A stretch of 64,000 bases of DNA, taken from assembly GCA_965153355.1 (NCBI GenBank), contig OZ231126.1, positions 12,524,001-12,588,000 of the forward strand. Reading direction: 5' to 3'. Both the position numbers and the translations under genes were made by a program. The notes beneath the pieces are model-generated. The model was not told the origin of the DNA and ran no database searches. It was given only the letters and a program-made list of their open reading frames with translations. Positions 16,176-43,771 of the stretch are shown here, piece by piece. The DNA is from Flaccisagitta enflata (taxonomy: Eukaryota). The stretch's first letter is position 1. Every line of letters starts with the position of its first letter.

Positions 16176-16269
<94 letters not shown>

Positions 16270-17071
16270 AACAAAGAAATAGAGAAAGAGATGTTGAATA
16301 GAAGTGATAAAATGTTTATGACACCCATTACGCTTGACTTGAACTGTTGCTTGCAAGCGCTGGTACATCATGTTTATGTTGCCCATCCATATTGATTAGA
16401 ACACCACCGGTCTCTGAATAACACTCAATAGCTTTAATAACGTCAAGCTAACATCAAATATGTCATGTATCACAATGTAAAGTGTATTTGGAACGTGTTA
16501 TTATTCATATCTCATTCCATTAGATCTTATTTTTCATTATTCTCTAAATCGTATGGCCACCGAAAGTTTATGACTTCCATATTTTCTTTCATTTCTTTTT
16601 TCATTTAAATAGCAATTTGTTTTGACATTCTTTAACATTTCCCATTATCTTTTTATTTCTCCCCCTGTCTGCTCCCTCACACCCATTTTTCATATCCTTT
16701 AAAGCCTTTGTGTAGCTTTCTGACTTCTGTTCTTTCCAACCTTTCCTTTTCTCCCTTCTTTTTTTCCTATCATATCCTATAGTATTCTGGGCAGCGACTT
16801 CAATGGGCTGATGTCCATTTGTATGCACAGGGATCTTTTTCCTCCCTTGTCCCGCCTCTTCTCTATCCTTCATTCCGTTCCATTTCTAAATCTATCAACC
16901 TTTTCCTTACTTACCATTTCGAATTTTCATCTTTTTCCCTCCCTTTTGTTGCGTACTCGCAACTCTAAGATAGGTTTTGTCCGTCAGTTGGTCCGATGGT
17001 CCATAGGTCCATTGGTCCGACCATGGTGATGAGTCAAAAAGTGTGAAACGTGTGCAGTTAAATGCTGCAGT

Positions 17072-17165
<94 letters not shown>

Positions 17166-18045
17166 TGTTTGTGTTTGTGTGTGTGTGTATGCTTGTATAC
17201 CCCTGCCCACCCGTCCGCAACGATATTGTGACCCCGCGTCACTTGTTTCCTCCTACGGTATTCTCCTTTTCCGTACCATTACTTTCTTCCTTTTCCCCGC
17301 CCGCGCTTGCCTCACTTCCCCCCCCCCCTTCATCCTCGTCCCCCGCACGCGCTTTTCTCACTTCTCCCCCCCCCCCCCACTCCCCACCCCGCTCTTCATC
17401 CTCGTCCCCCTTCGTCGAGCTTTAATCCCGCTTTTGCCTGAATGTGCCAAATAACTGTCAAGACCACTTGGCTGTTGAGGAATAAAAAATGCTCCCACCA
17501 ATTAGGTTTATATTGAGCGAGTTTTACAGAATCTGCAACAAGGACGAATCGTGAACATGAAAGAGTTGAGGAAAAAAAATAAGTGGTGGTGAGTTTGGTA
17601 TGTTGCTGAACTATGGTGGCGGGTATAGTATGCTGCGGAATTGTAGTGGTGCGGATTTTCGGTGGCAGCCTTTGTATATAGCAGACTTGTGGTGATGGGG
17701 TTGCGATGTTGTTAAACTATGGTGGTGGGTACACTAGCGTTAGCCACTCATCTCGCAGACAAACGACGCCAAACATACAGACCAATGGATAAGCCTAATA
17801 GATAGTAATGCATAGATGCATCAAAGAATAGGAAACGATAAGAGAGAGTTTGAAAAAAAAAAACTGATATGGGAAGAGAGAGTAACAAATAGAAAGAAAG
17901 GGGGAGGCAGGGAGGGGGGCTGGTGGTGGGTGGGGGGAGAGAAAAAGAAAAAGATTTAAGCTGAAAGACGAGAAAAAGGAAAAACTACTCCCGAGGAAAT
18001 GGGAACAACGATTGAACAAGATGAAGATTTGTGTGCACCATCGCA

Positions 18046-18147
<102 letters not shown>

Positions 18148-18475
18148 AGAGACTGGGAGACTAGGAGACTGAGAGACTGAGAGACTGAGAGACTGTCAGA
18201 CCGAGAGACAGACATACAGACAGACAGATGAAAAGTAGACAGTGAATGGAAGGGACAAAGAGACAGGGAAGACCAGAAAATGAGAGACAGAGACACAAAA
18301 AGAGAGACAGTCAGACAGTCACAAAAAGACAGAGGCAGAGGTAAAGGCAGAGAGAGTAAGAGAGACTCAGAGGCAGAGACAGAGACAGAGAGAGACTGAG
18401 GAGATTTGTGTTGTCACTCTGTGTCCGTCTAAATGGTGGGGCTTAGCCGATGGAGGAAGTTGAAGGGAAAAAAGG

Positions 18476-18582
<107 letters not shown>

Positions 18583-18723
18583 AGAGAGAGAGAGAGAAGT
18601 GGGCGAAAAAAGCTTCTTAATTGTTAAGGATTAGAGAAGTGGAAAGAGGCCTGGAAGTTATGTCAGAAAGAGTGAATATTATAAAAATGAAGATGAAAGG
18701 CTAGAAAGAAATGAAGGAAAGGA

Positions 18724-18787
<64 letters not shown>

Positions 18788-18798
18788 AAAAAAGAAAG

Positions 18799-18873
<75 letters not shown>

Positions 18874-18952
18874 AAATAAGAATGCAAGAAAGCAAGAAAG
18901 CAAGGCAGAAAGAAGTAAAGAAAGCAAGAAAGAAAGAAAGGAAGAAGGAAAG

Positions 18953-19109
18953 AAAACAAGGCCGGATACACGGCCACCAGTTGCGGACGGGTGGGCAGGA
19001 GCGGAAATGAGCGTTTTCACACTTTTCGACTCGTGCTCACCGACGGACCGACCGACGGACGGACGGACGGACGGACGGACGGACGGACGGACGGACAAAG
19101 CCTCTTATA
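18953..19109 (-). mobile_element. HINE family A, left part; split by the 24-kb transposon and resuming at 43200-43229
   Basis: ...GACAAAGCCTCTTATA | 24 kb | CTTATAGAGTTGCGTGTCCGCAACTAAAAA rejoins into a continuous HINE end; compare GACAAAGCCTCTTGTAGAGTTG near 36460. Confidence 0.85.
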
Positions 19110-19171
19110 CAGAGGGAGGAATCTTAAAAACCTTTTAACAGCTTTTAACAGATTTTAACAGCTTTTAACAG
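19110..19171 (+). repeat. Left terminal inverted repeat (62 bp)
   Basis: CAGAGGGAGGAATCTTAAAAACCTTTTAACAGCTTTTAACAGATTTTAACAGCTTTTAACAG; exact reverse complement of 43138-43199. Confidence 0.97.
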
Positions 19172-19464
19172 AAAGACCCTCTTTTTTTGGGAGGGAACCT
19201 GTTAAAAACCTCCAGAATAGTGTTAAAAGTCGGGGACCTTCTTTATTTCAAGAAGCGCTTAAAAACTGTTAAAAACAGCTTATGTTAAAAACTTGCCCCG
19301 TTAAAATCCTTGTTATAAATACATGTTAAAAATCTGTGTTAAAAACACTGGTGAAAAAATCTATTTTTGTTAAAAACTTGCTCTTACTAATTCCGAAATC
19401 TTCTTAGTCTTTGTTAAATTCATAGTTAAAATCCTTGATTTTTGTAAAAACTCAAGTAAAAGGC

Positions 19465-19611
19465 CATGTTAAAATCCTTGTTAAAATCCTTGTTAAAATC
19501 CTTGTTAAAATCCTTGTTAAAATCCTTGTCAAAATCCTTGTTAAAATTCCTTGTTAAAATTCCTTGTTAAAATTCATGTTAAAATCCTTGTTAAAATCCT
19601 TGTTAAAATCC
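19465..19611. repeat. Left subterminal array, 12-13-bp unit TTGTTAAAATCC, about 12 copies
   Basis: Direct tandem copies; further dispersed TGTTAAAA motifs lie between about 19200 and 20125. Confidence 0.9.
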
Positions 19612-21464
19612 GTTCCCTAACCTTTTTTGGGTGTTTAGAATCATTGCACTACAAATTTTCTTTGATCCTTCTTTGGTGAAAGCATCTTCAATTGCCAAGA
19701 TTCTTGTTAAGACATCTTGTTTCAGATATAAAAAAAAATCCATTTTATATTTTTCTTACTAAAACTATTAAGATCATTAAAAGTTCTCTAACAAAAAAAA
19801 GAGTCCTCCTTTTAAAAAAAGGTCTGTTAAATTGGTGTAAAAAATTTCCGTTAAAACCTACGTTGAAAGCTTATGTAAAAAGCTAAAGCAAAATTTGTTT
19901 TTTTTTTTGCTAAACAAAGCTGGCCCGTTTAAAAGTCAAACTCGGTGTAACCCAAATAAACTTACAATAATATTTTTAGACCCCAGCTCAATTTTAATGC
20001 GTGGTCCATGTAGAAAAAAACAGACCCAAGGGCAACAGTCTCGCACATTTGGGAAGTTGGTCAGGGGCAGTACTAAAACACACACAAACAAAACCTACTT
20101 AAAACCCTATAAACACCTTGTTAAAACCGTTGACTCATAGAATAGTTAGATCACATCTCCAACGCATGTTCTGAGCTAGTCGATCTATCGACTTCAGCCA
20201 CTAGCCACAATTTAATCATCAAGCGCAACCTTCAGATGTTAGATTTTACAATTTACATTCTTTCTGAGTGCGTGTTTCAGGAAAAATTCCATTAGTTAAA
20301 GGACTTTGGTTCTAGAGCCTACCATCATCATCATTTTCTTCATTTTGTTAGTGCTAGCGTTAGGGAACATGTCTGATTACTCCTTTGGTTAGGTTTTGGT
20401 TGATTCATGATCTTAGGATTGTTTTTGAGAGCAAAGTCAGTGAATTCAGCCTTTGTTGTCAGTCCCATTTGTCGCGATTGAGGCTAATCTGAGTTTGCTA
20501 GTTCTCATGTCTAAACACTACGCTCTCTTGTCAGTCTATCAGTGTTCCCATTATCCTTGTTGAGGGGTTGACTAGGTACATTTTACATTGGTCAGATTAG
20601 TTTGTTTTGTTGGTGTTTATTGGTTAGGCAGGCTTGTTAAGGAACCACATATGCGCGTGGTTCAAAAAGATTTCCACTTTTTCACTTTTTAAGTCACCAT
20701 ATGTGTCGAGTGATGTTATATCTGGGCCTCAATTGTCAGGTTGCTCTCACGCTCTTTGTGTTTTTTCTTTTGTTGCAAAACCAAAATCTGGATGTTTAAG
20801 CATTACCTTTTTTATCACACAAAATCATAAAATGATTACTCGATTTACGCCAACATCTTCAGACTCCTCCTACACTTCCTTTGCATAGTCCTTCCAAAAA
20901 AAGTCAATGAACTGAATCTATAAAATTAAGCAAAACCTATGGCTATTGGTTGAATTGATAGATGGACTACATATCGTCGTGCTCTGGGCTGTTTTAACAA
21001 ACAGAAAAAAGAAACGCGTTTTAGATTTGGCAATTTCACAATTTACATCAATGACTTTTCTCCTTATAGGTCCTCAGAACGAACCAAAGACTCGTTTAAC
21101 AAACCAAGAAGTAATCGCCCAAGTCAAATTTTGGTACTTGGAAACTCTCCAGGGTCAATTTCAACCCTTATTTTGCCAGTCTAGTGGTGCATGTACGCCT
21201 CTGTTGGACAGTCTTTAAACGTTCAGCACTGACTGTTAGCCCGAGCAAGAATCACTTCAGAACTAATGGCTGATATGACTTAGGAATGCTATCTGATTTC
21301 CCGAACTCTTGCATGTTGCAATTTCTTGTGAATCTTACTGTCAATGAAAATATAATAACCCAGTATTAGACTTTCACTAACTGAAAGTTGTTTGTCCCTG
21401 CAGATAGAGAACATCCAAAATCCTTTTGTTATTCTAGACTCACGCGGCATATACCCTCGTCATT

Positions 21465-24400
21465 ATGTCTGGTACCCTGAATTCCAAGCATTTCTTAAGG
21501 AATCAGCTTGTTTACGTTCATCTTGATGGGAAATGGCGTCAAGGCATTGCCATGGAGCCATCCGTGGACCACACATCGTACAACGTCAAGTGGAAGCATC
21601 CAGGAAAAGAAGAGAGAAAGAAAAAGCGCGTGATGAGGTTCGTACTTATTTGGTGGTTACTATATTCATGGAGAAGTCCTTGAGGGATGTGATCATTTTT
21701 GGCTTGAACTGTTAATTCCAACTGCTTTATAATTGGGCCAGCAAATGCGCCAATGTGTGCGCAGGGTGGATAGTCGAACAAATGCGTGACAGACCTACCA
21801 ACCAACAGATACAGCCTCTTATTGATGTGCGTCGGTGCACATAAACGACTGATCTTGATGTCTGGTGATTTGATAGCATGCGTGCATGAAGAACGATTAT
21901 GATTTGCTGATTTGTGGTAGGCGTTTGTTAATTTGCCATGCCATAACATGCATTTTTAGTCGCGGACACGCGACTCTACACCTTGCCGTGTCGGTCGGTC
22001 GGTAGGTCCGTCCGTCCGTCCGTCCGTCCGTCACATTGTTGAATTCCGGGCGGTTTTCACTTTACTGCTCCTGCCCAACTGTCCGCGACTGTCCTGCCGT
22101 GTATCCGGCCTTGTTTCTACAGCAAAGATATTCAAGTCCAAATGCCCGAAGGTACAATATTTTCTTTACACCCTATCATATTCATAAGAACTTTGGTATA
22201 TCTCTGATGTTAAGGAGAAACAGTTAAACCTCGCAATAACAGATGCCAAGGGACCAAAAAACTTGTTCAGTCAAAGTTTGATTTATCTTATTGTTAGTAT
22301 AGAAAAAAATTTCATGAAGAGATCAAAACTTTTTTCTTACTCATAATAAGTATATACATAATAACTTACATAATTTCAGTGGATTCACATTACTCTCGGA
22401 TCTGTTATACCGGGGTACAATTATTCCTTCAATAGCAGTCGTTAAAGCTGTTTTGAAAAAAAAATTCTTACAGTTCCTTTTTTTTCTTAGATTGTGATTC
22501 AAAGAATCCAGGATAACTGTTTTCTCAGGCTTGGATATAGTTGCATATTTCTCCCGCAGGCCTGGGGGGTGGGGGGAAGAAAAATAACAAAGAAAATGAA
22601 AATGAAGAAAAAAATCAAATGGTAAAAAATTATAAAAAAGAAAAATACAGTAGCTTTTTTATGTATGTCAGTACTAAAAAGTATTATTTACTGCAACACG
22701 AAATCACACTCTTAAAACAAAAGTTATTACTCCATAGGGGGTATGTGGGGATAAATCCATTAGTTTGACCACGTAGGGAAGAAAATCAAAAGATCAGGGG
22801 GTGGGGAATGAAATCCGAAGTCATGCAACTATATACACCCCTGCACTTTTTATATGCCGTACTGATTGTTACCCCGTTGGGCTTGTTGAAGCAAGAGTCA
22901 ATGTGACTGAAATTGTTTTTTTTTTTCATCCTCGATTCTGTAGTTTCATCATCGTGTTCAAAACATGATGTAATACTGTCAAGAAGAACCTTCTTAATGT
23001 AGCATTTTTAATATTTTATTCAACCGTTTTGCTTATTTCATCTTAGACTATCAGGCGGAGGTAGCTGCATCCGTGGAAAATCATTCGCCGCCATCGATTC
23101 CGCGCTCAGTTGATCAGAATCATCCGGCTGTGCGTGCTGAAGCGGAGTCAAATGCAAGAGGCCAGGCATCCGGACATGTCGACCCTTGCCAAAGTCAAGG
23201 TAGATGTTGTATTTGTTGGAGCACTCATATTCAAAACAAGGCGGGTGGTTAGGGGCAGTGATAGTGATTGGGGCAGCTGATTTCATCATTAGCATTTGAA
23301 ATTACAAAAAAATCTGTATTTTCTCCGCCCTCCCATCCGCAGTGTTATGGCATTTCTGGGTGATTGTTCAGTACCACAGAACGATGGAAAAACATAGATA
23401 CACCAATGCAATGTTGCATGTCTGCAGCTAGAAACCGTTGATGGATGATATAAATAAGCAATTTGATAACTCAGTACCAAACTACTTAAATATGCTATCC
23501 TCCTTTTACTCTACAGCCAGAAAGGTCGGTCCTCTTGGACTCTCTCAAGATAAAGAAGAAGAAGTGCCTATCATTCCTAACCCCAAAAGGCGGAGAGTCA
23601 AGAACCAATCTCTATTCCCGGAGACTCCGGATTTTGTTGGAGATGAAACTTTCGAGGCAACTGTTCTCGCCGAAGACTCTCAAGTCGATGATTTTGCAGG
23701 TAATAATTGATCCCTACCCTAAACTGATGTCATATTGAAAAGCTCTTCTCAAAGTTTTTGATTACATTCAACATCCAGCATGGCCGGATACATGGCAATC
23801 CAGTCGCAATTTCAAAAGTATTTCAGACAGACTGACGGACTGACCAACCGACACGGCAAGGTTTAGTCGCGTGTTTGCTACTAAAAATTTCAAAAGCATT
23901 GAAAATGCGCTTATCTATGTGTTCCTCAATATATCTATGTAGGTGACTCTGTCGGCGCCACCAGTAACATGGCAGGTACAACCACAGATGACGCCGCTAT
24001 TGCTGGTTTGAACGCTGATTCGACTGCAAAAGGATCAAATGCCAAGGACAATACCACCGTTGACGGCACTAACGGCGTTGCTACTTCCTACCCTCTGGAG
24101 GCTAATGCCGAGGGCGTTGCAGATGTTGATTCTTCCGCCAATTTGGAGGAAGATAACAACGCCGCCAATACCGAGACCAACAGCAACAGAGATATCAACG
24201 CCGCTTCTGGTACCGCCCGAGATGATGGTACCGCTGCTGACGCCACGGCTCCACCAACTTCTGCCCAGGATGATGCGCCTGATGCCCCGGCTGCTGGTGC
24301 CCCGGCTGCTGGTGGCCCGGCTGCGGGTGCCCCGGCCGCTGATGCCCCGGCCGCTGATGCCCCGGCTGCTGGTAATTTTGAATTCCATTTTTAGTCGCTT

Positions 24401-26469
24401 GCAAAAGTCTCATTTAGAGGGCGTGTTCATGTAATTATATTCTTATCTGTCACCATATCCTTCCGACGCGGATCTCTTTAAGACAGATTTGTGTTGTCTT
24501 TGTCTGGAATTCGACATTTGAAAACCTTTTTCAATTTCAGAGAATGAGATTTGGGACGGGACTTCGCGTTGGGAGATGCCTGCTAACTACAGCGAGCTGG
24601 ATCCAGACGTGGAAAAGAAAAGAGAGGTAAATTTCTCTTGAATTGTGTTCAGGGGGAGTGAACACAAGGCTGGATACACGGCTACCTAAGTTGCGTGCTG
24701 GTGGGCAGGGCAGGGGTAGGCTGCAACGTATTTGTACACTGATAAAGTAAAAAATCGCAATTTGATAAACAGACCGACACTGAAAATTGGCACTTCCTGG
24801 GGATTGATTGAATCATAGCGTTTTCTGACATGCATGACTTGTATTGTTTTCGCAGGCGATTCGCAACAAAGTTGGTTCAGCCGTGATTGAAAGTCTCAAT
24901 GAGGAAGCAACCAGAACTATGGTCAGATCCATCTTGGCTAAGAGTACCGGAGGATGGACACAAGTCCAGCTGGGAAAGTTTTTAGGTAAGCAAAGTTCTT
25001 TATTTTCGAATGCAACCGAGAGATTTGCAGAAACATTACTTCAGGGGATTGCCCCAGCCTACAAGTGAGTTTTTCCCAGTTGTCAATCCTGTATCCTATA
25101 TAGAATCGTAGAATCATTAGAATGTGGGAAATATTCTTACAATGTCATAAGATTTCATTGACTCTATTATACAGTAGATCTCGTCTAGACTTGAGATAAT
25201 GGGGGCAAGCATTGTGAAAAGATGAATGAAGGTAGGGGAGTGATATTTGAATCCTAGACTAATCACAGGATGCTTAATTCCCCATGATAGCTGGTTGCTA
25301 CGGAAACACTTTTCCATGTATTCTCGCTGAAATATCAATATTTTGAGAGATTTTTTAGGGAACATTGTTTAAAATCAAATTTGCGACAACTTTCCCACAG
25401 TATGTTCTGTAAGAATGTCGCTCATTTGGCTGTTGCTAGGGAGCGTATCCATGTGTGACAACCATTAGCAACAGATAAACGAGCGACATTCTTACAGAAC
25501 AAACTGTGGGAAAGTTTTAGCAAATTTGATTTTAAAAAATGTTCTCTCAAAAAATTTCTCAAAATATTGATATTTTAGCAAAAATACATAGAAATGTGTT
25601 TATTTAGCAACCCGATTTCATAGGCAATAAAGCATCCCTTTATTAGTCTATGTTTCAAATATTATTCCCCTGGCTTTATTTTTTTTCTACAATGCTTGCC
25701 TCCGTTATCTCGAGTCTAGACAAGATCTACTGTATAAGCTGATATTGCATTTTCTGCCGCCAATACAAGAATGAAAGGCTTTGTCCGTCGGTTGGTCGGT
25801 GTTGCGGTTGTTTGACAATCATGGCCTACTTAGCTTTGCGATATATTTCATTCCATTAGCTTAAAAACTTCACTGTGCTGTTTTTTTCCTGTTCAGCTCG
25901 ATCGGCGTCGATCCTCTCCAATTATCTGAACACTGACCCTGATGTCCGAAAGAAAGTTATTCCTGACACGCAAAAGATCATCGCAGAGGACCTGAAAATC
26001 TTTTTGACCTTCATCGCCAAGGAAGGCATTCTCCCAGAGATTGCAACCCGGAAGCCATTAAGGGTGAGTAAACAAGGCTGTTGGTTCGGGTCTGTTTTGT
26101 TGAAAATATATTACTAAAGAAAAGTAAGATCGACAAACTAACCAACTGATAGCTTGTAAGTGCGTGTAGACTGCTTAGAATATTTAGAATAGATCAACTC
26201 AGTGAAATACTCCAAATATTCCTTAACAGAAACCTCACGTCAGGAAGAAGACGAAGCATCCAGGCATTTCAGCGGAAAAGAAAAGGCTGATCCTACGGGC
26301 CTTCACCGACGCCGTCTCGCGCGCAAAGGCTGAAAAACCCGATCTTTCGGAAGTCGAGGAGGAAGGCGTGATTAAAGATTCCATGAAAAAGCTTTCCGAT
26401 TATCATGGCATTGAAATTGCCAAGATTCAGGACTTTTACCGTAATCATAAGAAGTTTGGAACCCAGTAA
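21465..26469 (+). CDS. Transposon accessory gene A, 529 aa: Tudor-like domain, acidic low-complexity linker, lambda-repressor/XRE-type HTH, homeodomain-like C-terminus
   Basis: Nine GT-AG exons with compatible phases: 21465-21637, 22123-22151, 23047-23199, 23517-23699, 23943-24371, 24541-24626, 24856-24985, 25897-26063, 26230-26469 (1590 nt, open to TAA). Motifs: VYVHLDGKWRQG..YNVKW..VMSKDI; WTQVQLGKFLARSASILSNYLN; MKKLSDYHGIEIAKIQDFYRNHKK. Upstream exons cannot be excluded. Confidence 0.75.
21954..22116 (+). mobile_element. HINE family A copy in intron 1 of gene A
   Basis: TTTTAGTCGCGGACACGCGACT ... (GTCC)n ... GCCGTGTATCCGGCCTTGTTT. Confidence 0.8.
25172..25732. mobile_element. Palindromic Tc1/mariner/pogo-type MITE (TA TSD) in intron 7 of gene A
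   Basis: TA-CAGTAGATCTCGTCTAGACTTGAGATAA ... TTATCTCGAGTCTAGACAAGATCTACTG-TA; arms complementary towards the centre. Confidence 0.8.
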
Positions 26470-26486
26470 TTGGCACCGGTGCCTTA

Positions 26487-27129
26487 TAGACCAGGTTGTT
26501 GAAGAAAGGACTCGGCTTTTCTGGAACAAAGGTTGAAAATTTGCATACAAGTATTTAAAGTGTTGTAGATCATAATAATGATAGATGCAGGTCAAAAAAA
26601 TTTGAGCACCTATCTTTAAAAATTGTTTAAAATTTTTAAAATCATGCCATCGCCAAACCGCTTGAGTGAGGGCAATGAAATTTTATGAGCTAAAAAATAT
26701 GTATTTCGTACGTATGCACACCAAATTTCAGCTCGCTAGCTTTATTAGAAGCAGAGATATAGCCGATTTACTTTTGTATACAAAAACTGCATTTGTTTGG
26801 AAAACGGGTATTTTGAAGATAAATGCACCCCAAAGTAAATCGGCTATATTTCCGCTTCTAATATAGCTAGAGAGCTGAAATTTGCTATGAACATGTATAA
26901 AACACATTTTTGTTTGCTCATGAAATTTTATTGCCCTGAGGCAGACAGTTTGGCGGTTTCATCGTTTTGAAAATTTTAGATGAATTTTTAAGATAGATGC
27001 TCAAATTTTTTTGACCTGCACCTATCATTATCATGATCTACATATCTTTAAATACTTGTAGGCAAATTTTCAAGCTTAGTTCCGGAAGAGCCGAGTTTGC
27101 TCCATTTCATGCATCAACAGACTGGACTA
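26487..27129. mobile_element. Palindromic MITE with TAG...CTA termini and 3-bp TSD (Academ-like)
   Basis: TTA-TAGACCAGG ... ACTGGACTA-TTA; long complementary arms (e.g. TGAAAATTTGCATACAAGTATTTAAAG / CTTTAAATACTTGTAGGCAAATTTTCA). Confidence 0.7.
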
Positions 27130-27427
27130 TTAAGCAAAAGCTGTCTTCCCTCGTTTTCATTGGATTGAGTTTAATAGAACTGGATGATTTTGAAAAGCCA
27201 TGATGCTCTATCTCATTATTGCTAAAAATGGCCAAATGTGTCATGGCCAGTTCTTTTTTCGTAGAATTGCGAATGCATGCGCAGCTAGATAGATATCTTT
27301 GTTAGCATTTTTATTTTTACTCTTTTTTTCTCACTTTCCGCTAAACTCTGTCATGTTGTCGTTATTATCGGGAAAAAAGTCGAAGTCAGTCTTCGATTTT
27401 GACATATTCGAGAGAAACATGGTTTTC

Positions 27428-27743
27428 ATTTTTTAAGTGCGTCCTCGCACTTCTATAAGAGGTCATGTCCGTTGGTTGGTCGGTCGGTCGGTCGGTCGGT
27501 TGGTCGGTCGGTCGGTTGGTAACGCAATCGTTTAAATCGCTCAAAACGGCCAATTCTTCATTACTATCACTTCTCATGCCTCACCACGCTCATTTTCATT
27601 CTTTTATTCATTCATTTATTCATTCATTCATTCATTCATTCATTCATTCATTCATTCATTCATTCATTCATTCATTCAAAACGTTCAACCACAAATTCTT
27701 AATCAAGCGAGGCGCACTTATTGGCCATAACTTGGCCTTGTTC
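27428..27743 (+). mobile_element. HINE-like element with GTCG and CATT tracts
   Basis: TTTTAAGTGCGTCCTCGC start, subterminal GCGAGGCGCACTTA, 3' hairpin GGCCATAACTTGGCC, CTTGTT end. Confidence 0.65.
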
Positions 27744-27899
27744 ATGAGAAAGTCGAGTATCGCATCTGGGCGAATGTGGCCTCAAATGAAATTGATAGGA
27801 GTAAGAACATATGATAATTCTCTTTCATTTAGCGCCAAGCAGAACAAAAATTTTAAAGATTTTTAGTTGCAGGCACGCGACTCTACACCTTGCCGCTTG

Positions 27900-28610
27900 T
27901 TTGTTGTTCGGCAGGTCCCTCGGCTGGTTGGGTGGTAGGCTGGTTTGACAAGATAGTGTGCATGTGTTGAGTTCTTCCATTTAGAAACTCCATACCAAGT
28001 TTCAATCAAATTGTTTGAAAAATTTCAAAGTTATGCAAGTTTTTCAGTTTTAGGCTGATAGGCTAGTTGGGTGGTACGCTGGTTTGCTCGGTTAGCATGT
28101 GAATTGCTGGTTGGGTGGTAGGCTGGTTTGACAAGATAGTGTGCATGTGTTGAGTTCTTCCATTTAGAAACTCCATACCAAGTTTCAATCAAATTGATTG
28201 AAAAATTTCAAAGTTATGCAAGTTTTTCAGTTTTAGGCTGATAGGCTAGTTGGGTGATACGCTGGTTTGCTCGGTTAGCATGTGAATTGCATACATGTGT
28301 TAAGTCCCTCTATTTTGAAACTACATATTAACCAAATCGGTTAAAAAATGCTATAGTTACGCATGTTTTTTTACTTTTAGGCTGGTTGGGCTGGTTGGGA
28401 TGGTCGGATCAAACAAATCAGATAGGATGTAAAACGCCTTACCCTAGTGCTACTTCCCACCAAATATCAACCACATTAGTAAAAAAACATAAAAGTTATC
28501 CATATTTTAAAATCCATGACAACAACAACACCCACCCGCCTTGAATTATAAAAAAATTGCACTGGCTGAGGATGAAAGCTTCGTACAAAGTGACCAATGC
28601 TTACGACTTT
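27900..28610 (+). mobile_element. Dispersed element with internal tandem repeats of about 150-180 bp (probably HINE-type)
   Basis: 27923-28105 is repeated almost exactly at 28106-28288; a homologous copy lies inverted at 32705-33920. Confidence 0.6.
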
Positions 28611-28925
28611 ATTCCACACGGCAATTACTGCCATTACTGGTAGGAGTTATGTTGATCAGCTTATCTTTTTTCAGTGACAGTACGTTACTACATCGTTATA
28701 TTAGCTCTAGTGCTTTTAAGCCATCTTTTGCGACGGTCTTCTTAAGAGTGACTTCGTCATCAAAGTGATTCCCGTTATTCGGCAGTAACTCTTCGTGTTT
28801 CTTCCTAAAGCAGAGCCTTGCATCGTTCTTCGGCGTGGCAAAATCTCATCGGCAGAATCGTCGTTTAGCAGGGCGTCTTCGAGTATCACATCTTAAATCT
28901 TATATTAAGCGTTCCAGTTGGCTTA

Positions 28926-29605
28926 ATGAACATGAATATCATCGTAACTTCGTCTCAAGATCCCGTAGCCAATGCGACTCACGCCAAGTGTGCTATATGC
29001 CTCGGCATTGTCCCAGCTAGGAGGGCTTCAATACATCGAATTAAGTGTGAGGAGCAAAACCCCGATCTCGTGCCTCCGTTTCGATGCGCTGGTGCTTCAG
29101 GCCATATGTTCCATACTGCGTTTGAGTTGGAAAGGCACGAGCGATCTTGCCCTTGCCTTGCGGAGATACGAGAGTCACTCCTTGGGCCACCCCGACCAGT
29201 TGTGACGGGCAATGTACGTGCGCCGACTCCAACCAATCTCATTCCCGACGAACAATGGACAGATGAAGATCTCATAGAGACCGATCGATCTTTCGAATTG
29301 CCGCCCGTCCGCGATGACGAATACGACGCGTACACGGCAAAGGCAGTTCATGCCTTGGCAACCGAATTTTCTGATGATTGTCCTATTCGCAAGTGAGTTT
29401 TTCTGCACTCGTTGTTTCTTTGAGTTTCGTTTGATGGTGATACTTAACTCTCAACGCACCTCATCGCAACTTAATACATCAACATCATGATACAATAGAT
29501 AAACCTAGTTAAATACTGCATCACGATGCTGATGGAGTAACCACATTGGGTTGCGATTTATTTAATAGCTAATGCCTTTCTAATCCCCTCTCTCTCTCTC
29601 TCTCT

Positions 29606-29651
<46 letters not shown>

Positions 29652-31309
29652 CATACACACACAGAATTAAACGTTTACATCAACGCGCTCTTGGCATAGT
29701 GAATGGAAAGGGCAGCATCCGTGAGAGCGTTCCCATCATAACCCTCCCCATCAGCAATCCGCCAATAGCTTCTCATGATCCGCTATCGCATGAGGTCATT
29801 TCGGACCTTCTGGCGCTGAGTCCTATGGAGCGTGAGAAGCGGATGATTCAGCTTCTGATGCAGTTAAAAAGAAAGCATCCAACTGGGGAGCAGAAGGCGA
29901 CTTTTATTGCGCGGGCCAAATCGTTTTGCGCCATGATTGATCATGATCGGCTGCCACGCTTTGTTTTGAACCTTTGCGATGGAAACTTTCGAGAATTAGG
30001 CCATTGGGAATCAGGCCTTGGCCACTCAACGCCTATCCAAGTGGCTTACACGCTGGGCCTTGGTCATATCAGTGTGGAAATCTTCGAAACTTATCTATAT
30101 TGGAATTCTTGCCTTGAAGAAGAAGTAGTTTTCGAATTCGCCAAATTAGCGGGAAAACAACGTGTTGGAGATGCGATTGAGCAACTGATCAAGCTGCTTA
30201 ATCCGAAATTTGATGCCATCAGCCATCTTCAACTGAATGAATTTTTCTTTGATCGCATCTCTAAATTGGATGGAATTCCGCCTCCAAACCCGCAACGTGT
30301 TCGCAAGTTCATCTCGGAACTGAGTGATAGTGTGGGACTCTCAGACAAAACGGAATTTGAACAAGTCAATGAATATTTCAAGAAACTCTTGGATCGCCTC
30401 TCTCAGGGGGGTATGGAGCTCGTGGATTTTGTTATCAGGATCCATCAGGCATGTGGGGAAGAGGACCGATATTGGTTGGCAATCTTTACGCTGCTCTATG
30501 AGAAGATGCCTGACGTTGGATATGTTTTGTACAAGACCTTGTCGCCCCTGGATGGTTTTGTCCATCTCCAGCCGCCTGTTGATGTTGCCTTGCTCCCCTC
30601 AAGTTTTAAAGAAGCTAAATGCGACAAAAACGGGGTTTATTTCCACGAGCTCTGCGATTCGGCTTCATTTTTGGTTGTTGAGCAAGAAGAAGACTACAAC
30701 CGTGCCATCGCATCAATTGTTGCGGAGACTGGACCCATTCCGCTTGTGGTGAGGAAATCTCAACTCCCGCCGCACCTTCCCAGACCTCCCGGCTTTGCAG
30801 TTCTAGCAATTATTGCTGAAGATATGACCTTCATTTTGCAAGCTGAGTCAATCATCCTAGGCTCCCCGCAGGAGGCGCTCTTTCGTCGTCTCGTCAATTC
30901 CTTGTCTTCAAAATATTTGATTGTTTCGGGTTCCGCGGGATGGTCGCCGCTGACCATGATTCATGCCCTTCATCGTGAATTTGAGCCCTGCTTTCCCATC
31001 TTGCTGACCACGGTTCTTCAAAAGCAAACTACGAAGAAAGATGCCTTGGCTTTACTTGTTTTGCCTGATGGCGAAGCTGTTTGTCACAGATTTGAGCTGA
31101 CCATCTGGGAGTATTTCGAAGATGACGATGACCTGAAAATCCGCCACTTGGCTGCTCAACTCCAACTCATAAAAAGGGCGACATCTATTTTGATGGCAAA
31201 TGGTGCCAGTTTGGAGTCCCTCGCTGTCGATGGCCACCGCTCTTACAAGAAGGCCCAGAAGAAAGCTACGCGACCATTCAAGAATTATCCCTTCAAAGTT
31301 GTTGATTAA
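28926..31309 (+). CDS. Transposon accessory gene B, 703 aa: GTSF1/Asterix-like tandem zinc fingers fused to a degenerate Mut-7/EXD3-like 3'-5' exonuclease domain
   Basis: Exon 1 is 28926-29392 (donor AA|GTGAGT); exon 2 is 29665-31309 (acceptor ACACAG after a (CT)n tract). The phase-2 join is in frame (2112 nt). Fingers: CAIC-x11-HRIKC-EEQNPD and C-x5-H-x10-H-x3-C, then acidic DEQWTDED. The C-terminal region follows the Mut-7 exonuclease motif order but lacks the catalytic acidic residues. Confidence 0.8.
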
Positions 31310-31400
31310 TGAGGACGTGGTATTGGAAGAAAACGGCAATCACATTACTTTTCTAAAAACTTGTAGCGACAATGACTACGCAATTGAAAGGGTCCATATT

Positions 31401-32524
31401 TTAATGAAACTGAAAAAAACTCTTGAAATACTTTTTCGCCAGTTTTACATGACGTAGTGACGGTCGTGCCATTGGAACATCAGCCAACAATCGTTCTTCC
31501 TTCGCCAGGCGCTGTCCCGACCGCGAGACGGCATCCATTCCTTTCACGTCTTCCGCCACGATAGATCCCAAATGTGTGTAAATAAATAATGCGTATAAAT
31601 AATCAACACGTTCATAGCGAATCTCGTCTGGGAGTTCTGGATCATCGATAAACACTCTCAAACCCATTTTGTGCAAATCCATAAGGCGGAATAATTTCAT
31701 AATTTTCGCGCTGGCGGATGGCTTCGCACGTTGAGGCTCGGGCTGCCGGCGTAGGATCGCAGTAGACTAAATTGGCGCCATAACTTTCTGATAATAATGG
31801 GTCAAAAGCGTCAACCAAATGGTAGGGTAACATCTGTTCGCTGGGGTTAGAGACGTGTAATAATCTTCCTATTACCCCCCCCCCACAATTGCCATGGGAG
31901 ATAAGGACGCCATTCAACGGCAACCCACCGCAAGTGCAAATGCGGGATCGATGTCTTCATAACTCGGTGTCGTGATCGTGATAAAGAGATACGCCGCAAC
32001 CCCATCTTGTAGGAACTCGTGATAAGTGGGAACAAAGAGTGGGAAAGTCTTGTAAGCCGACCCAACAGCGTCGGAAACCCAACTATCATTTCCGTTTCTT
32101 CAGTTCTTCGAATCTTACATCTCGGAATAACATGGTGTTTAACGCCAAAGGACATGCGTCTCGACTGAAGAACATCACTCGTTTCTGCTTCTCTGCTTCT
32201 TTGAAGGGCGTTGCGGAGGTCCAAACTAGTGACAAAGGCGGATCGCCGTTCGTCTTCCGTTGGTGGCCAATGACTTAGTCGCCAGTACAAATAAGTCACG
32301 CCGCTGGTGCTGGTGTACACAGAGGCGTCATGAAATTTGAGTGTTTCTTTGTCAGATTCCTATTTGTGATTAGTTTCGCGCGACATGACAATAGTTTGGT
32401 CGGGAAATCGCTCTCGAATCCCTCAGCAGTCAAATCTTGACAGGCGGAAAGGATTGGGGAATTCGCGAGATCCGTCACCCATATTCGGCGTTTCAAACAC
32501 TCATTTTATAATTTCTTTCTCCAT
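31401..32524 (-). pseudogene. Probable frameshifted cargo gene of unknown function
   Basis: Four consecutive overlapping minus-strand ORFs (32296-32496, 31847-32320, 31642-31923, 31401-31700) in non-repetitive, coding-like, GC-richer DNA. One shift lies at the C-run near 31875-31884. No family recognised. Confidence 0.4.
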
Positions 32525-32704
32525 CACCTTTGTATCTTTAAGCGCCGGTATGGAAAAGCCGGTATGGAAGAGACTGCTTTACAATGACGCGTTTTGAGAT
32601 TAGGGGAATCTTAAATTTTAACGTAGATCCGATTATTAGTAACTTCTCATTATGAACGTGAATATTATCTGAATGTTAATGGATGTAAAGGCCGTTAGAT
32701 AAGT

Positions 32705-33920
32705 TTTTTTGTCCGCGACGGATTTTAAAAAATAGATAACTTTTTTATGCTTTGACTGATCTGGTTCATATTTGGTTGGAAGTTGTACAAGGGTAAGGTG
32801 CTTTACATCCTATCCGATTTTTGTGATCCAACCAACCCAACCAGCCCAACCAGCCTACCGGCCTAAAACTGAAAAATGTGCATAACTTAGGCATTTTTCA
32901 ATCGATTTGGTTGAAATTTGGTATGGAGTCTCTAAATGGAAGGACTCAACATATGTATGTGATTTATATACATTTGAGCATGCTAACCGGCCAAACCGAC
33001 CTACCACCTAACCAGCCTACCGACCAAAAAGTGAAAAACTTGCATAACTTAGTCATTTTTCAACTGATTTGGTTGAAACTTGGTATGGAAGAACTCAACA
33101 TATGCACACTATTTATCCTGTCATACCAGCCTACTACCCAACCAGCCTACCAACCTACTAGCCTAAAAGTGTAAAAAGTGCATATCTTTGGCGTTTTTCA
33201 ACCAATTTAGTATGGAGTCTCTATATGGAAGGACTCAACACATGTGTGTGATTTTTTTATTTGAGCATGCTAAGCAGCCAAACTGACCTAGCACCCAACC
33301 AGCTTACCAGCCTAATAGTGAAAAAACTTGCGTATATTGGATATTTTTCAACTAATTTGGTTGAAACTTGATATGGAGTTTCTAAATGGAAGAACTCAAC
33401 ATATGCACACTATTTATCCAAACCAGCCTATCACCCAACCAGCCTACCACCCAACCACCCTACTACCCAACCACCTTACTAGCCCAAAAGTGAAAAACGT
33501 GCATAACTTTGCCATTTTTTAACTTTTTTATGCTTCGACCTATTTGGTTTATATTTAATGGAAGGTTGTAATAGGGTAAGGCGCTTTATATCCTATCCAA
33601 ATTTTGAGATCCGATCAATCCAACCAGCCCATCTAGCCTACCAGCCTAAAAAGTGAAAAACATGCATAACTTTGGCATTTTCCAACCGATTTAGTTGAAA
33701 TTTCGTATGGAGTCTCTTCATGGAAAAACTCGACATATATATGTGTCCTAAGTGATTTGTATTAATTTGAGCCTGCCAACCAGCCAAACCAGCCTACCAC
33801 CTAATCAGCCTACCAGCCTAGAAGTGAAAAACTTGCATAACATTATCATTTTTTAACCAATTTGGCTGAAACATGGTGTGGAGTCTCTAAATGGAAGAAC
33901 TCTACATATGCACGCTATGT
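32705..33920 (-). mobile_element. Second, inverted copy of the tandem-repeat-containing element family
   Basis: About 7-8 diverged units containing GCATAACTT..CATTTTTCAA..GATTTGGTTGAAA..TGGTATGGAG; 32705-32830 is the reverse complement of about 28405-28520. Confidence 0.65.
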
Positions 33921-36534
33921 GAACTTTTACTTGTTGCAATCTGAAGAGTTAGTGATCTTTTGATTAAATTGATCTTAAGGAATCTTCAACCCCCTTCCCT
34001 CCTGGACGCAAATACAGTTCAGATTTTCTCTTTTTACTGAGCTATGGATATTTGTGATCTAAGTAGCCATTTTGTCATTGTCATCGTCCAACAAATATAA
34101 GCTTCTTAATGTGTTTACCTAGTTTTAGATAATGATAAAGCAAATCATGATGATTGTCACTCACTGTAACTCTCTCTGTGTAACGTTCTGGGCTTAGACA
34201 TAAGAAACAGAAAATGGAGACTTTACTGCAGCAAAAACTGACTGCCCTGCGGGAAAAGTTTGATGCGCACCCTATTTCAAGAGATGCCTTAAAATCCGAC
34301 TCAAACTTCCTTCGTGACTTGCGTTGTAAATGCGGTTGGACAATTTCCATAAAAGAAGGAGCAAGGCCCTCCAAGGTTCTTACTGAAGTAAAAGAACACT
34401 ATGCCAAAAGAAAAACCATTTCCACAGCCCGAAAATTTAAGAATTCTGATGATCGGCACAGCCTCTTTGGATTCCATTTGGAGGATGATAACATTGTGTG
34501 CCACCAAACACCATCTGTCTTGGGGTGGCTTAATCCTGCAGCGGCAAGGGCCCCTCCTCAGCCAACAATACCTACAAACAAAAAGTATGTCTACCCAACA
34601 TCTGCTATAGATGAAATTCAACAACAAGAGAATGAAAAAAAGGACATAAAGCAAGCTTCTTTTGAAAGTGTGCAACAGCAAGAGAATGAAAAAAGGGACA
34701 AAGAGCAAACTGCCTTTGAAAGTGTTCAACAACAGGAACAAGAGAATGAACAGCAACAAAACTCACTGAGCGAAACTGCCATTGCAGAATCAGATCAGCG
34801 TGAACGTCAACGAATGCAAAATTCCTTTAAAGCCATGTTAGATCAGTTTGCCAAAATGCCTACAACTCCAGACTGGCTTATGAATCTCATTTGGGCTCAC
34901 AAAAATGGTAAAATCGATGCCGTACAAACCGCCGCACTAGAAGCTTTGGGGTCATCTTTCACTGACGCTCCTCGGAACCGACAATATTGCGAATTGAGTA
35001 AGGTTTTGTTCCGATACTTCAGTCTCACACAATCTGAAAAGTCCTATGAAGTATTTCGCCGCATTTATGGTGGTCCGACTTTTCGATATCTGACCGCTCT
35101 ACGCATAGACATTCTCACTGATGTGGGTTGTACAACCCGAAATATGGTGGAAGCGCGTATTTTCTTTGAAAAGGTAAGTTGTTGAAGTTTTTTTTATTCG
35201 TGGACATGCGACTCCACCTTGCCGTGTCGGTCGGTCCGTCAGTCACATTTCTGAATAGCGATTGGTTTTCGCATTACTGCTCCTGCCCAACTGTCCGCAA
35301 CTGTATTGCCGTGTATCCGGCCTTGTTTATTTCCAAAATTCAGAAAATGCTAACATAGTAACATTCTCCAAAGATGGAGATGTTCAAAAAGAGGCTCTTT
35401 AGCCATGTAAACAATTATTCACTGTCAGTTGGTCAGTTTTTAGGTTGAGTATTTAAGTATGAATTTAGTGATCAAAGTAGGTACTCTGCTATGAATAGAA
35501 AACCGCTTGCGACAGTCACCCCATTGACCTTGTTTAATCCTAATCTTGTTCTTGACAGATGGGCTACAAAGGCGTTATGATATGGGCTCATGATGAACAT
35601 CCAACCATGTGGGGCCTCAACTTTGATACTGCAAGTGGCCAAATAATCGGCGGCACTAATAAAACGCCACACGGAGACCTTAAAACAGTGAATGATGTGA
35701 TAGATTTCCTCAAAAAGCATACCAATGTTAGCAATCAACCAACTGTCTCATTGGTTGGGGCAATTTGTGCCTTGGGGAAACGTCTCCCGCTCTGTCCAGT
35801 TAGTTCTGAGCTCAGCCCACTTCTCAAAGGAGTGACATGGGAGTTTTTAACCACCTATTTGGAAAATGTTGGTAAAGCCGCCTTTTTGGCACTAGTGATT
35901 ATCGTTGCCATAGTGACAGACAATGATACGAGGATGCGTGGCAACACTTTAAACACTTGCTTGAAGGAACATATGAAAGAAGATGACGTTTATGTTGAAA
36001 TTGATCATCCAGCTTCCAGAATTGTTGCTCCTTGCATTTTCAACCGAGGTAAACCGGTTGCAAGACTCAAAGATGTGGAGCATCTACAGAAGGGATGGAG
36101 AAACAATCTTAATGTTCCAATGGTGTTGGGGTCCGAGAGTTTGTTTTGGTTGCACGTGGACCAAGTTCGTTTGTGTTTTCCTTACAGCCAGCATGGTTTA
36201 GGCGTCATGGACACCAACATTGCAGTAAGTGAATTTGTCCTCTTTAGTTTCTATAATATTTAGGCCTCCGTCGGTCCGTCTGTCGGTCCGTCCATTGATC
36301 CGTCTATCAGTCCATCATGGTCATCGAGTTGAAAAGTGGGAAAACAAGTGTTTTAGGTACTTGATAGATGCCCCAGCCCACCCGTCCACAACAATATTGT
36401 GACCCTGCGTCAATTGTTCAACTTAATCATCAAATCATCATATATGGACTAACTGATGGACAAAGCCTCTTGTAGAGTTGCACGAGTTATCACGGACCAT
36501 TGTAGATGGATCTTTAGAAGGACTGATTGTAAAG

Positions 36535-38642
<2,108 letters not shown>

Positions 38643-39832
38643 TTGTAAAGCCACGAGTCTGCATCTAGAAAGATTATGGCAAGTTTCTTATGGTAACTCT
38701 TATCATTCAACAAAATATCAACTCAGTGACATTCTGATTGAACAACATGACAATAATTTCTGCATATTGAGCTGTTGTTCTTGTTTCAGCAAGAGCTGGT
38801 AGGTCTCTTTTTGCTTTTTCTGGTCGTGGATACGCGACTACACCCTGATGTGTCGGTCCATCTGTCTTTAACGCTTTAAGTTTGTCTATTAGTCACATTT
38901 GTTAATTGCAAGCGGTTTTCACACTACTGCTCCTGCCAATTTATTTGTGACTGGATCGCCATGTATCCAGCGTTTTTTAAAGTTTTGGAAGCGCAACTCT
39001 TTTAGAGGCTTTGTCCGTCCATCAGTCCATTTGTTGGTTCATGTTCAAGAGTCGAAAATGGGGAAAACAAGTCTTTTAGATCCTTTTTGAGTATGTGTTT
39101 GTTGAAAGGGGGGGGTGGGGTGTGGATGGTTGTTAGGAATCCACTGCCCACCCATCCGCAAAGATATTGTGACCCCGCATCACTTGTTGCATCATTGCTC
39201 CTGGCATTTGACATATACAGCTCACTCAGCCTATTGTAACAAGTCTCTTGTTGTATAGAATGTAATAGACCAATGCCCATGTACAACTACTTTTCATCTT
39301 CTTCACAGGATCGCCAGAAAGTGTCGCCAGCCCAGAGGGTATTGCATCCAAGAGTGCGCAAGTGCCTGAGAGAGCTTGACCGGAGGAAGAAGTCTAGCGA
39401 CCGAGAAGGGCTTTGTATCTACCTGGAGGTCGGTGATAAAATGGTGGAAGCTTTAATGAGCCAAGAGATGGACTTTCTTCAAAGGATATATTATGTATGG
39501 CGAGCTCATTTTTTTCTTCAAGAATGGAAGGCCTGGTTTTTACATGAAAATAACTGCTACTCCGGGAAATTTAGAATAAATGCCTTACCATCTCAGCAGA
39601 TAATGGATGGAGTAGAGATAACAGCCAATGGTCTCACTCTGCTTATTATCATTATGGCCGAGTTCTATCCAAATGAACCGCTCTTAGTTGATCAAGTCAA
39701 TACTAAGAAGCTAGAAAATTTCTTCGGCACTGTTCGACAACAGCCTGGTAATTGTCAAAGCCACACATTGCAAGAAATGATGGGAAAGCAACGAAGAGCG
39801 GTTCTGAAAGACTTGACTGAAAACGAGTTGAA

Positions 39833-40556
39833 ATAGCAGCCCAAAGGCAGTAAGTGGTCAGCGGTACCCGTGCCCTGCTTGAGTAGTATGTGATTTAGGT
39901 TGAGGGGGAGCAGGGCAGCGGCCCCGAAGGGGACGAAGTCCTGTAGAACACAGGGGAATCTGTCCATCCGTCCGTTCGTCTGTCCTCCTCAGCTTTCCTT
40001 GCCTTCAGGATGCCAAATTATGAAAATCTCAAATGACAAATGGAAATATACAAGGGCAATTGGACAAGGGTGGGGGAGCAGGCCAGGATCTAGGTCTCTG
40101 AGGCCAGAATCTGGGTCTCAGAGGCCAGGGTTGGAGTCTCTGAGGCCAGGTCTTTGGGAGGAGGATAGGGCCTTGAGATTTAGGTCCAGGTCCTGGGTCC
40201 TGGAGGCCAGAATCTGGGTCACAGAGAGCAAGATCTAGATCTCTGAGGCTAGGATTAGGGTTTTAGAGGCCAGAATCTGGGTATTAGAAACCAGGATCTA
40301 GATCTTAGGGGCCAAAATGATTGAATTTTGACCAAAATTCAGGTTTTCTAGCCAGAATTTAGCCATTTTGCTTGGATTTTGCCATTTTGCTTGGATTTGG
40401 GCCATTTTGCTTGGATTTGCACTCCAAAGAAGACAAAGCCCTGAGAATGGGGCGGGGGGGGGACGGACGTACGGACGTACGGACGTACGGACGGACGGAC
40501 GGACAGATTCCCCCTGTGTTCTACAGGACTTCGTCCCCTTCGGGGCCGCTGCCCAA
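39833..40556 (-). mobile_element. HINE family B inserted in transposase exon 3
   Basis: Near-perfect inverted repeats (39912-39965 vs 40501-40554). Removing it restores GAG TTG AAG TAC (ELKY); it inserted at an AA/TT site, as Helentrons do. Confidence 0.85.

Positions 40557-43706: not shown

Positions 43707-43771
<65 letters not shown>

Follow-up and report, generated by a model that had tools for sequence, protein, structure and literature searches.

A divergent GTSF1-type zinc-finger module, putatively exon 1 of a larger low-copy gene, in Flaccisagitta enflata

The stretch of Flaccisagitta enflata DNA analysed here, hereafter the window, covers 64,000 nucleotides of contig OZ231126.1 (assembly GCA_965153355.1, positions 12,524,001 to 12,588,000 of the forward strand). 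On its plus strand, an open reading frame (ORF) extending from the ATG at 28926 to a TGA at 29394-29396 encodes a protein of 156 residues (17.3 kDa), in which two zinc fingers are followed by an acidic, Trp-containing tail. Along the ORF the motifs appear in the order CAIC..HRIKC, CAGASGH..HERSC and IPDEQWTDEDL, an arrangement reminiscent of GTSF1 (Asterix), an essential small PIWI cofactor for transposon slicing and silencing. A second long ORF (ORF2) follows behind a putative intron, four further long ORFs (ORF3 to ORF6) lie downstream on the same strand, and blocks of inverted high-copy repeats enclose the first two ORFs (Table 1). On the sequence evidence presented below, the segment 28926-29392 is a genuine, conserved protein-coding module.

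Finger 1 (CAICLGIVPARRASIHRIKC) and finger 2 (CAGASGHMFHTAFELERHERSC) are connected by a linker of 12 residues (EEQNPDLVPPFR). The codon of Cys22 begins at 28989, that of Cys75 ends at 29150 and that of Trp111 occupies 29256-29258. The finger part of the protein is near neutral (isoelectric point 7.9), and the remaining tail of 81 residues is acidic and proline-rich (isoelectric point 4.3, 17 Asp/Glu and 10 Pro). A six-frame scan of the 64-kb window for the patterns C-x2-C-x11/12-H-x3-C and C-x5-H-x9/10-H-x3-C returned each of them exactly once, both within the ORF 28926-29393. In 100 block shuffles of the window, the two patterns averaged 0.08 and 0.06 occurrences per shuffle, and no shuffle contained the tandem pair (0/100); because of this rarity, the tandem finger motifs are more than a product of chance. 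The module and ORF2 are each present in one copy in the window. Sequence and coordinates as given in an earlier note on this DNA proved exact, down to the end point at 29392, immediately ahead of the GTGAGT that begins at 29393. The tandem fingers described there, the first of them of the CCHC type, were likewise found, but the canonical spacing ascribed to finger 2 was not: ten residues instead of nine separate its two His, in the window as in all members of the family to which the module belongs.

This family was recovered with HMMER, by which the 156-residue protein was compared with 1.84 billion representative sequences. Nine matches were obtained at E <= 1e-3, three of them at E <= 1e-10 and two at E <= 1e-30. 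Seven of the nine are relatives of 68-160 residues; the other two (P0007 and P0008), long repeat proteins without fingers, were dropped as chance matches. A profile search and cluster look-ups extended the family to 19 sequences, the window's own included, all of which come from ENA assemblies and carry neither names nor Pfam domains. Finger 2 reads C-x5-H-x10-H-x3-C in 19/19 of these sequences and shows the x9 spacing in 0/19. Finger 1 (C-x2-C-x11/12-H-x3-C) is found in 16/19, the remaining three being without N-terminus. The four ligands of finger 2 are invariant in all ten aligned members, as are Gly95, Pro100 and Pro102 of the tail, and the N-terminal 'M..V.TS..P' is kept in the relatives. 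We know of no GTSF1 protein with the invariant GN.R.P.P motif of this tail. Fourteen of the 19 sequences have the acidic Trp motif; the remaining five (P0004, P0014, P0013, P0018 and P0003) are truncated or chimeric, and the sole acidic Trp match of P0003 sits in a tail resembling ORF6.

The two main subgroups of the family match each other with an hhalign probability of 98.9% (E = 1.4e-17). A maximum-likelihood tree of 12 rows, from which the truncated or chimeric P0003, P0004, P0013 and P0014 and the near-duplicates P0016, P0017 and P0020 were omitted, displays three groups with long branches between them. Relatives on record range from 68 to 197 residues and probably represent ORF calls on short contigs. 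Pattern scans for the DNA of the relatives yielded 171 and 130 matches in metagenome contigs, none of which was confirmed (0 in both), and two such scans of viral contigs gave no match. With its fixed pair of a CCHC and a CHHC(x10) finger and a new tail motif, the family defines a separate conserved subfamily, seen only in unannotated marine assemblies. A further observation concerns P0018, whose non-coding-looking tail (residues 132-162) matches positions 8539-8634 of the window (62% over 32 residues, tblastn E = 3e-5) and suggests a repeat that Flaccisagitta enflata shares with the organism behind P0018.

Comparison with proteins of known structure points to GTSF1. Against 177,635 distinct PDB sequences, the set used for phmmer and profile searches alike, phmmer returned three matches at E <= 10 for the 156-residue protein, the best being mouse GTSF1 (6x46_A, E = 0.027). 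The alignment is colinear (query 30-119 versus 26-114 of 6x46_A) and extends over the 'H.IKC..NPD' junction, finger 2 and the 'DE.W.D.DL' tail. A profile of seven family members (A1) matched 6x46_A at E = 2.3e-6 and a further chain named 'GTSF1' (9nhb_E) at E = 1.6e-4, and a profile of ten members (A2) again placed 6x46_A at the top (E = 3e-6). The UBZ4 fingers of RAD18 and WRNIP1 came next in the profile searches, with E values of 0.08-0.2 (0.12-0.2 with A1) and for finger 1 only. In the profile alignments, the first Cys, the His and the last Cys of finger 1 are in register with GTSF1, and finger 2 contains a gap of one residue. These matches support the view that the module represents a genuine, though diverged, offshoot of the GTSF1 (Asterix) family.

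The likeness to GTSF1/Asterix proteins (UPF0224; mouse GTSF1 6X46, GTSF1L and GTSF2, BmGtsf1 and Gtsf1L) comprises two N-terminal tandem fingers, the '..H..KC..NPD' linker, a length of approximately 150 residues and a disordered, acidic tail in which a Trp is conserved some 35 residues past finger 2. In contrast to these proteins, the module has C-x2-C in place of C-x5-H in finger 1 and H-x10-H in place of H-x9-H in finger 2, and it is probably an exon of a larger protein rather than a small free protein. GTSF1 proteins are described as 'less than 20 kDa' with two fingers near the N-terminus (PMC9539491, excerpt). In the excerpts of the literature searched, their fingers are of the CHHC type, save for a few nematode GTSF-1 proteins that carry CCHC, namely those of T. 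spiralis, Mesodorylaimus and Paralinhomoeus (PMC13650160, excerpt). These nematode proteins, which we know by description, resemble the module in having CCHC for CHHC while still being predicted to fold; unlike GTSF1, their partner is RRF-3, an RNA-dependent RNA polymerase, and not PIWI (PMC13650160, excerpt).

Residues of known function are retained in part. In mouse GTSF1, RNA binding requires R26, R29, K36 and K39, and PIWI binding requires W98, W107 and W112 (Arif et al., PMC9385479, excerpt). According to the phmmer alignment, R33 and K40 of the module correspond to R29 and K36, and P30 and E43 occupy the positions of R26 and K39. One of the three PIWI-binding Trp residues is matched (W111 = W107), with Pro and Ile at the positions of W98 and W112. 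Directly after finger 1, the window copy reads CEEQ and is acidic, which sets it apart within the family: each of the seven other lineages carries Lys or Arg at one or more of these positions. In the silkworm protein BmGtsf1L, a conserved Trp of the tail is required for binding to a Tudor domain of Vreteno and aids binding to Ago3 (PMC10711660, excerpt). By analogy, we naturally infer that the Trp motif of the module would dock on PIWI or on a Tudor scaffold.

The 3′ end of the module coincides with a potential splice site. The TGA that terminates the 156-codon ORF is embedded in AA|GTGAGT, and this GTGAGT at 29393 is the sole GTRAGT within 29380-29700. An acceptor (cacag|A at 29664/29665) is preceded by a (CT)30 tract, and a join from 29392 to 29665 is in frame, resulting in 703 codons with a single terminal stop. 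The GC content of the putative intron amounts to 0.40 versus 0.52 and 0.47 in the flanking coding sequences. Furthermore, the 53 codons of ORF2 ahead of its first Met look coding, with GC contents of.60/.43/.49 at the three codon positions versus.60/.47/.48 in exon 1 and.41/.33/.43 in the spacer, and with 4 and 5 stops in the other two frames. In five lineages of the family, the ORF stops or turns unrelated no more than one residue from the aligned Lys, and in the two lineages that read past this Lys the next residue is Tyr, as from a G|TAT donor. Judged from the protein ends only, this pattern fits a conserved phase-2 donor. We consider the odds a little better than even that a larger gene begins with the module as its first exon and encodes a fusion of about 703 residues. 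About 6% of the RNA run X9 yielded 0 reads on this DNA, a sample that says nothing about expression or splicing. An ATTAAA is found at 29666. The 237 nucleotides 28516-28752 just upstream of the module occur once in the window, yet have a summed depth of about 18,000-26,000 in the sequencing run X1; as the ATG at 28926 lies 174 nucleotides past this high-copy segment, the promoter of the gene may sit in a repeat.

A lead to the nature of the putative second exon came from the Atlas language-model search. The neighbours of ORF2 are clusters of 630-740 residues named '3'-5' exonuclease' or 'exonuclease mut-7 homolog', and each of the ten best family-bearing matches (10/10) carries PF01612 (score 0.94, 197/256 features). 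On these features, ORF2 is a candidate MUT-7/Nibbler/EXD3-type exonuclease, a family whose substrates are small RNAs bound by PIWI and AGO. Nibbler, with the architecture NTD+EXO, trims PIWI-bound pre-piRNAs (piRNA, PIWI-interacting RNA), and the NTD-EXO part of EXD3 comprises residues 1-582, a size near the 547 residues of ORF2 (PMC11347159, excerpt). ORF2 has no MUT7-C domain, nor does a hidden Markov model, a PDB match or a homologue support the resemblance. A GTSF1-like head on a MUT-7/Nibbler-type protein is not described in the literature searched. Tail-to-tail with ORF2 and in the same low-copy island, three overlapping ORFs of 121, 104 and 170 residues occupy three frames of the minus strand between 31401 and 32359. 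They match no Pfam family, their PDB matches are repeat-driven chance hits, and they may represent a frameshifted pseudogene.

Table 1. Positions of the module, its motifs and the surrounding features in the window
Feature	Position	Strand	Basis or remark
Left high-copy repeat block, 183-nucleotide units, inverted relative to 32720-33918	27922-28515		Summed depth 242-25,877 (X1-X3)
GTSF1-like module, putative first coding exon	28926-29392	+	ORF, 19-sequence family, PDB profile matches, N-terminus kept
Zinc finger 1, CCHC, C-x2-C-x11-H-x3-C (Cys22, Cys25, His37, Cys41)	28989-29048	+	GTSF1 alignment
Zinc finger 2, CHHC plus one residue, C-x5-H-x10-H-x3-C (Cys54, His60, His71, Cys75)	29085-29150	+	
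Tail motif GNVRAPTP; Gly95, Pro100 and Pro102 invariant	29208-29231	+	Family alignment
Acidic Trp motif IPDEQWTDEDL, Trp111 at 29256-29258	29241-29273	+	Aligned with W107 of mouse GTSF1
Putative intron, 272 nucleotides: GTGAGT donor, (CT)30 tract, cacag acceptor	29393-29664	+	
Putative exon 2 (ORF2), 547 codons plus stop; MUT-7/Nibbler-like by language-model features only	29665-31309	+	
Right high-copy repeat block, inverted relative to 27922-28515	32720-33918		Summed depth 168,757 in X1 (32679-32820)
Four long ORFs (ORF3 to ORF6: 34184-35185, 35556-36263, 39240-39836, 40332-41750), weakly P-element-transposase-like	34184-41750	+	AATAAA at 41765
Segment homologous to the part fused with the module in P0003 and P0014/P0004	41379-41519	+	BLASTP, tblastn

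The four ORFs between 34184 and 41750 bear a faint resemblance to transposases of the P-element/THAP9 type. In the ORF 39240-39836, the segment 'LENFFGTVRQQPGNC' matches PF21789 (TNP-like_RNaseH_C, P-element type) with E = 0.11 and 12.9 bits versus a cut-off of 24. By eye, the downstream ORFs contain what we take to be D..E / D / E-like P-element motifs. None of the four has a Pfam match at threshold or a THAP domain, and their PDB matches are confined to chance or repeat-driven ones. A comparison of 25000-28925 with 41750-46000 for terminal inverted repeats recovered microsatellites and one marginal match of 26 nucleotides (88%, E = 0.052) only. The ORFs share with P-element/THAP9 transposases the weak PF21789 match and relatives that resemble deletion derivatives (see below), but differ from them in having neither a THAP domain nor terminal inverted repeats nor a Pfam match at threshold. 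The first approximately 75 codons of the 472-residue ORF 40332-41750 (40332-40560) are derived from GGAC-type repeats and from tandem units of 19-21 nucleotides, and the exon proper probably begins near 40560, behind '...caaaag'. About 260 nucleotides past the AATAAA, a tandem array of a 23-nucleotide unit begins (42028-42999; 42 copies, 96% matches, GC content approximately 0.22).

The link between these ORFs and the module is provided by chimeric relatives. Up to 'APTPT', P0003 shares 64 of 65 residues with the full-length P0012; it then continues with 47 residues that match window 41379-41519, that is, residues 350-396 of the ORF 40332-41750 (43% identity, 72% positives; BLASTP E = 3e-12, tblastn against the window E = 2.7e-10). 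P0014 and P0004 depart from the module two residues earlier and then read the downstream DNA of P0003 in another frame; the tail frames of P0003 and P0014 are compatible, with runs of 6, 10 and 7 codons at one constant offset. Because of these tail matches, the organism of P0003 must have the module physically connected, through two different junctions, with a homologue of the last ORF in the window, while 12 kb separate the two here. The two junctions are consistent either with internal-deletion copies of one mobile unit or with alternative splicing in one long gene. In the literature searched, we found no report of a transposon-borne GTSF1 or of a transposase with CHHC fingers.

Read depth characterizes the locus as a low-copy island between high-copy repeats, in the repeat-rich genome of a marine eukaryote. 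In X1, possibly the run from which the assembly was made, exact-match unitigs have a depth of 79-101 over 28362-32747, save for values of 178.9 and 58.6 in 31682-31957. The summed depth in this run is 13-217, mostly 78-90, over 28753-32678, and it amounts to 13,752-25,877 over 28300-28752, a profile on which the assignment as an island is based. Inverted blocks of a repeat of 170-183 nucleotides enclose the island 28516-32719, and the arms 28378-28515 and 32720-32857 are 85% complementary. The marine metagenome runs X2 and X3 contain pieces of the locus at 95-99+% identity, and three of four coding differences are synonymous, which speaks for constraint. The earlier note had placed the module in a transposon, a claim we do not uphold as the evidence is mixed: the low copy number and the missing terminal repeats stand against the chimeric relatives and the transposase-like ORFs. 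We give a transposon-encoded module roughly one chance in three.

With a probability of about 0.5, we favour a reading in which a divergent GTSF1-type module opens a larger low-copy gene as its first exon and acts as an adaptor for small-RNA complexes. Most likely, a docking head of the GTSF1 type sits on a larger protein that looks like a component of a small-RNA pathway, with an unexplained linkage to transposase-like genes. The first exon would be spliced over the 272-nucleotide intron in frame into the 547-codon ORF to give a protein of about 703 residues, to which ORF2 would supply an NTD+EXO-like body of MUT-7/Nibbler/EXD3 size. The fingers might bind RNA or the surface of a partner, as in known GTSF1 proteins, and the Trp motif might find its docking site on a PIWI-clade Argonaute or on a scaffold of the Tudor type. 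In that case, the module would bring the attached domain to small-RNA complexes rather than act as an inhibitor, and an mRNA retaining the intron would give rise to a free GTSF1-like protein of 17 kDa.

Several observations weigh against this reading. The chain 9nhb_E is gone from the matches of profile A2 at E <= 1, and the Pfam family zf-U11-48K (PF05253) is matched at E <= 10 neither by the window protein nor by three sub-pieces of it nor by any of ten family members (0/10). Neither finger has the canonical CHHC spacing C-x5-H-x9-H-x3-C; this may be read together with the blank Pfam result, since the Pfam model describes one canonical finger of 25 residues. The Atlas search with the 156-residue protein retrieved generic zinc-finger or unnamed clusters only. 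Moreover, of the four positions that bind RNA in mouse GTSF1, only two are basic in the module, and the window copy carries the acidic CEEQ after finger 1. As regards ORF2, the Atlas recognition value of 2236 falls below the tool's mark of 2300, and this search is the sole support for an exonuclease. Neither the whole ORF nor its halves matched PF01612 or any other Pfam family at E <= 10, and ORF2 has neither a PDB sequence match nor homologues in the band of 300-958 residues. In addition, the module of the chimeric relatives continues into an ORF6-like and not into an ORF2-like segment. A long fused form was not seen among the relatives in the 1.84 billion representatives, which is weak evidence either way. 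Of the GTSF1 likeness proposed in the earlier note, the relationship to mouse GTSF1 is borne out by the best PDB match and by the profiles, and the expected zf-U11-48K match is absent. A better match to a UBZ finger, which the note had named as a possible outcome, was not obtained.

An origin of both fingers outside the GTSF1 family, with a UBZ4/C2HC finger next to an unrelated Cys/His motif and a similarity that arose by convergence, appears very improbable. Finger 1 has exactly the C-x2-C-x11-H-x3-C spacing of the RAD18/WRNIP1 UBZ4 fingers and matches them weakly at E 0.08-0.2, and the missing Pfam CHHC match and the uninformative Atlas search would agree with such an origin. However, the UBZ4 match is below significance and concerns one finger only, whereas the GTSF1 match is stronger by four to five orders of magnitude and covers both fingers and the linker. 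The single-sequence alignment is colinear into the Trp tail, and the 'RF(P).H..KC' ahead of the junction is common to the module and mouse GTSF1. If GTSF1 kinship is accepted, the ORF might still end at a true stop, the TGA at 29394. It would then encode a stand-alone host GTSF1 paralogue, a 17-kDa PIWI cofactor like GTSF1L or GTSF2, with ORF2 as a separate gene. The 156 residues and the layout are those of known GTSF1 proteins (PMC9539491, excerpt), relatives have about 150 residues, an unspliced mRNA could use the ATTAAA at 29666, CCHC fingers are reported for some nematode GTSF-1 proteins (PMC13650160, excerpt), and several GTSF1 paralogues are common in animals according to the excerpts consulted. 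We nevertheless regard a free protein as the only product as unlikely. The stop falls exactly within a consensus donor to which an in-frame acceptor is present, ORF2 is open and coding-like over 53 codons ahead of its first Met, the ORF ends in five lineages would resemble read-through of a conserved donor, and chimeric relatives join the module to other coding sequence.

The transposase-like ORFs allow for further interpretations. The decoy put forward in the earlier note would be a PIWI-titrating protein borne by a transposon with transposase-like ORFs up to 41750, which has kept the Trp motif and lost the activating or RNA-binding function. The two junctions to the 41379-41519 homologue, in frame in P0003 and out of frame in P0014/P0004, have the look of deletion copies. 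The weak TNP-like_RNaseH_C match (E = 0.11), the inverted high-copy blocks around 28516-32719, the acidic segment after finger 1 where relatives are basic and the confinement of the family to unannotated ENA assemblies point in the same direction. That transposons might encode mimics of piRNA factors has been speculated in print (PMC6367137, excerpt), and bdelloid retroelements carry DEDDy exonuclease ORFs (PMC5408684, excerpt). Such a decoy is quite unlikely, though. The depth over 28753-32678 is single-copy-like, the module and ORF2 occur once each in the 64-kb window, inverted termini are missing between 25000-28925 and 41750-46000, the putative transposase lacks a THAP domain and is supported at threshold neither by Pfam nor by the PDB, and the two junctions may alternatively reflect alternative splicing. 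Finger ligands and tail motifs are kept across lineages with long branches between them, and because the family is conserved over such branches, a decoy is not needed. It is distinctly improbable that the fingers serve instead as the nucleic-acid-binding head of a transposase-like gene, replacing a THAP domain through long-range or alternative splicing, and that the likeness to GTSF1 reflects the ancestry of the fingers without a role at PIWI. P0003 is an in-frame fusion to an ORF6-like C-terminal segment, all ORFs are on one strand with the poly(A) signal only past ORF6 (AATAAA, 41765), and the ORFs 34184-41750 contain no THAP-like domain of their own. However, the donor at 29392 has no phase-compatible acceptor with a good pyrimidine tract in ORF3, ORF5 or ORF6 (ORF4 has two candidates), and the window has no GT at the position of the P0003 junction. 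The conserved acidic Trp tail is a trait of GTSF1 and not of DNA binding, and the identity of the transposase itself is weak (E = 0.11). No less improbable is a low-copy DNA-transposon-like unit that carries a mimic of piRNA factors, a GTSF1-like head on a MUT-7/Nibbler-like body occupying or misdirecting PIWI, in which case the chimeric relatives would be internally deleted copies.

If the module is indeed spliced to ORF2 as we favour, a PIWI-docking module would be physically linked to a small-RNA 3′-end processing enzyme. If the linkage to transposase-like genes is true, the 'transposon-encoded mimic' hypothesis would become directly testable (PMC6367137, excerpt). A mimic truly carried by a transposon would be the first concrete case of those proposed to drive the piRNA pathway's rapid evolution (PMC6367137, excerpt).

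Elsewhere in the window, Rfam and tRNA scans found nothing. Three long hairpins (26510-27096, 5469-5950 and 12921-13300), with arms of 181-265 nucleotides that are 83-90% complementary and loops of 18-70 nucleotides, look like miniature inverted-repeat transposable elements or foldback structures. The non-repeat part of a 415-residue ORF on the plus strand (59200-60251) contains motifs that we take to be those of the C-terminal part of a reverse transcriptase from a non-LTR (long terminal repeat) retrotransposon.

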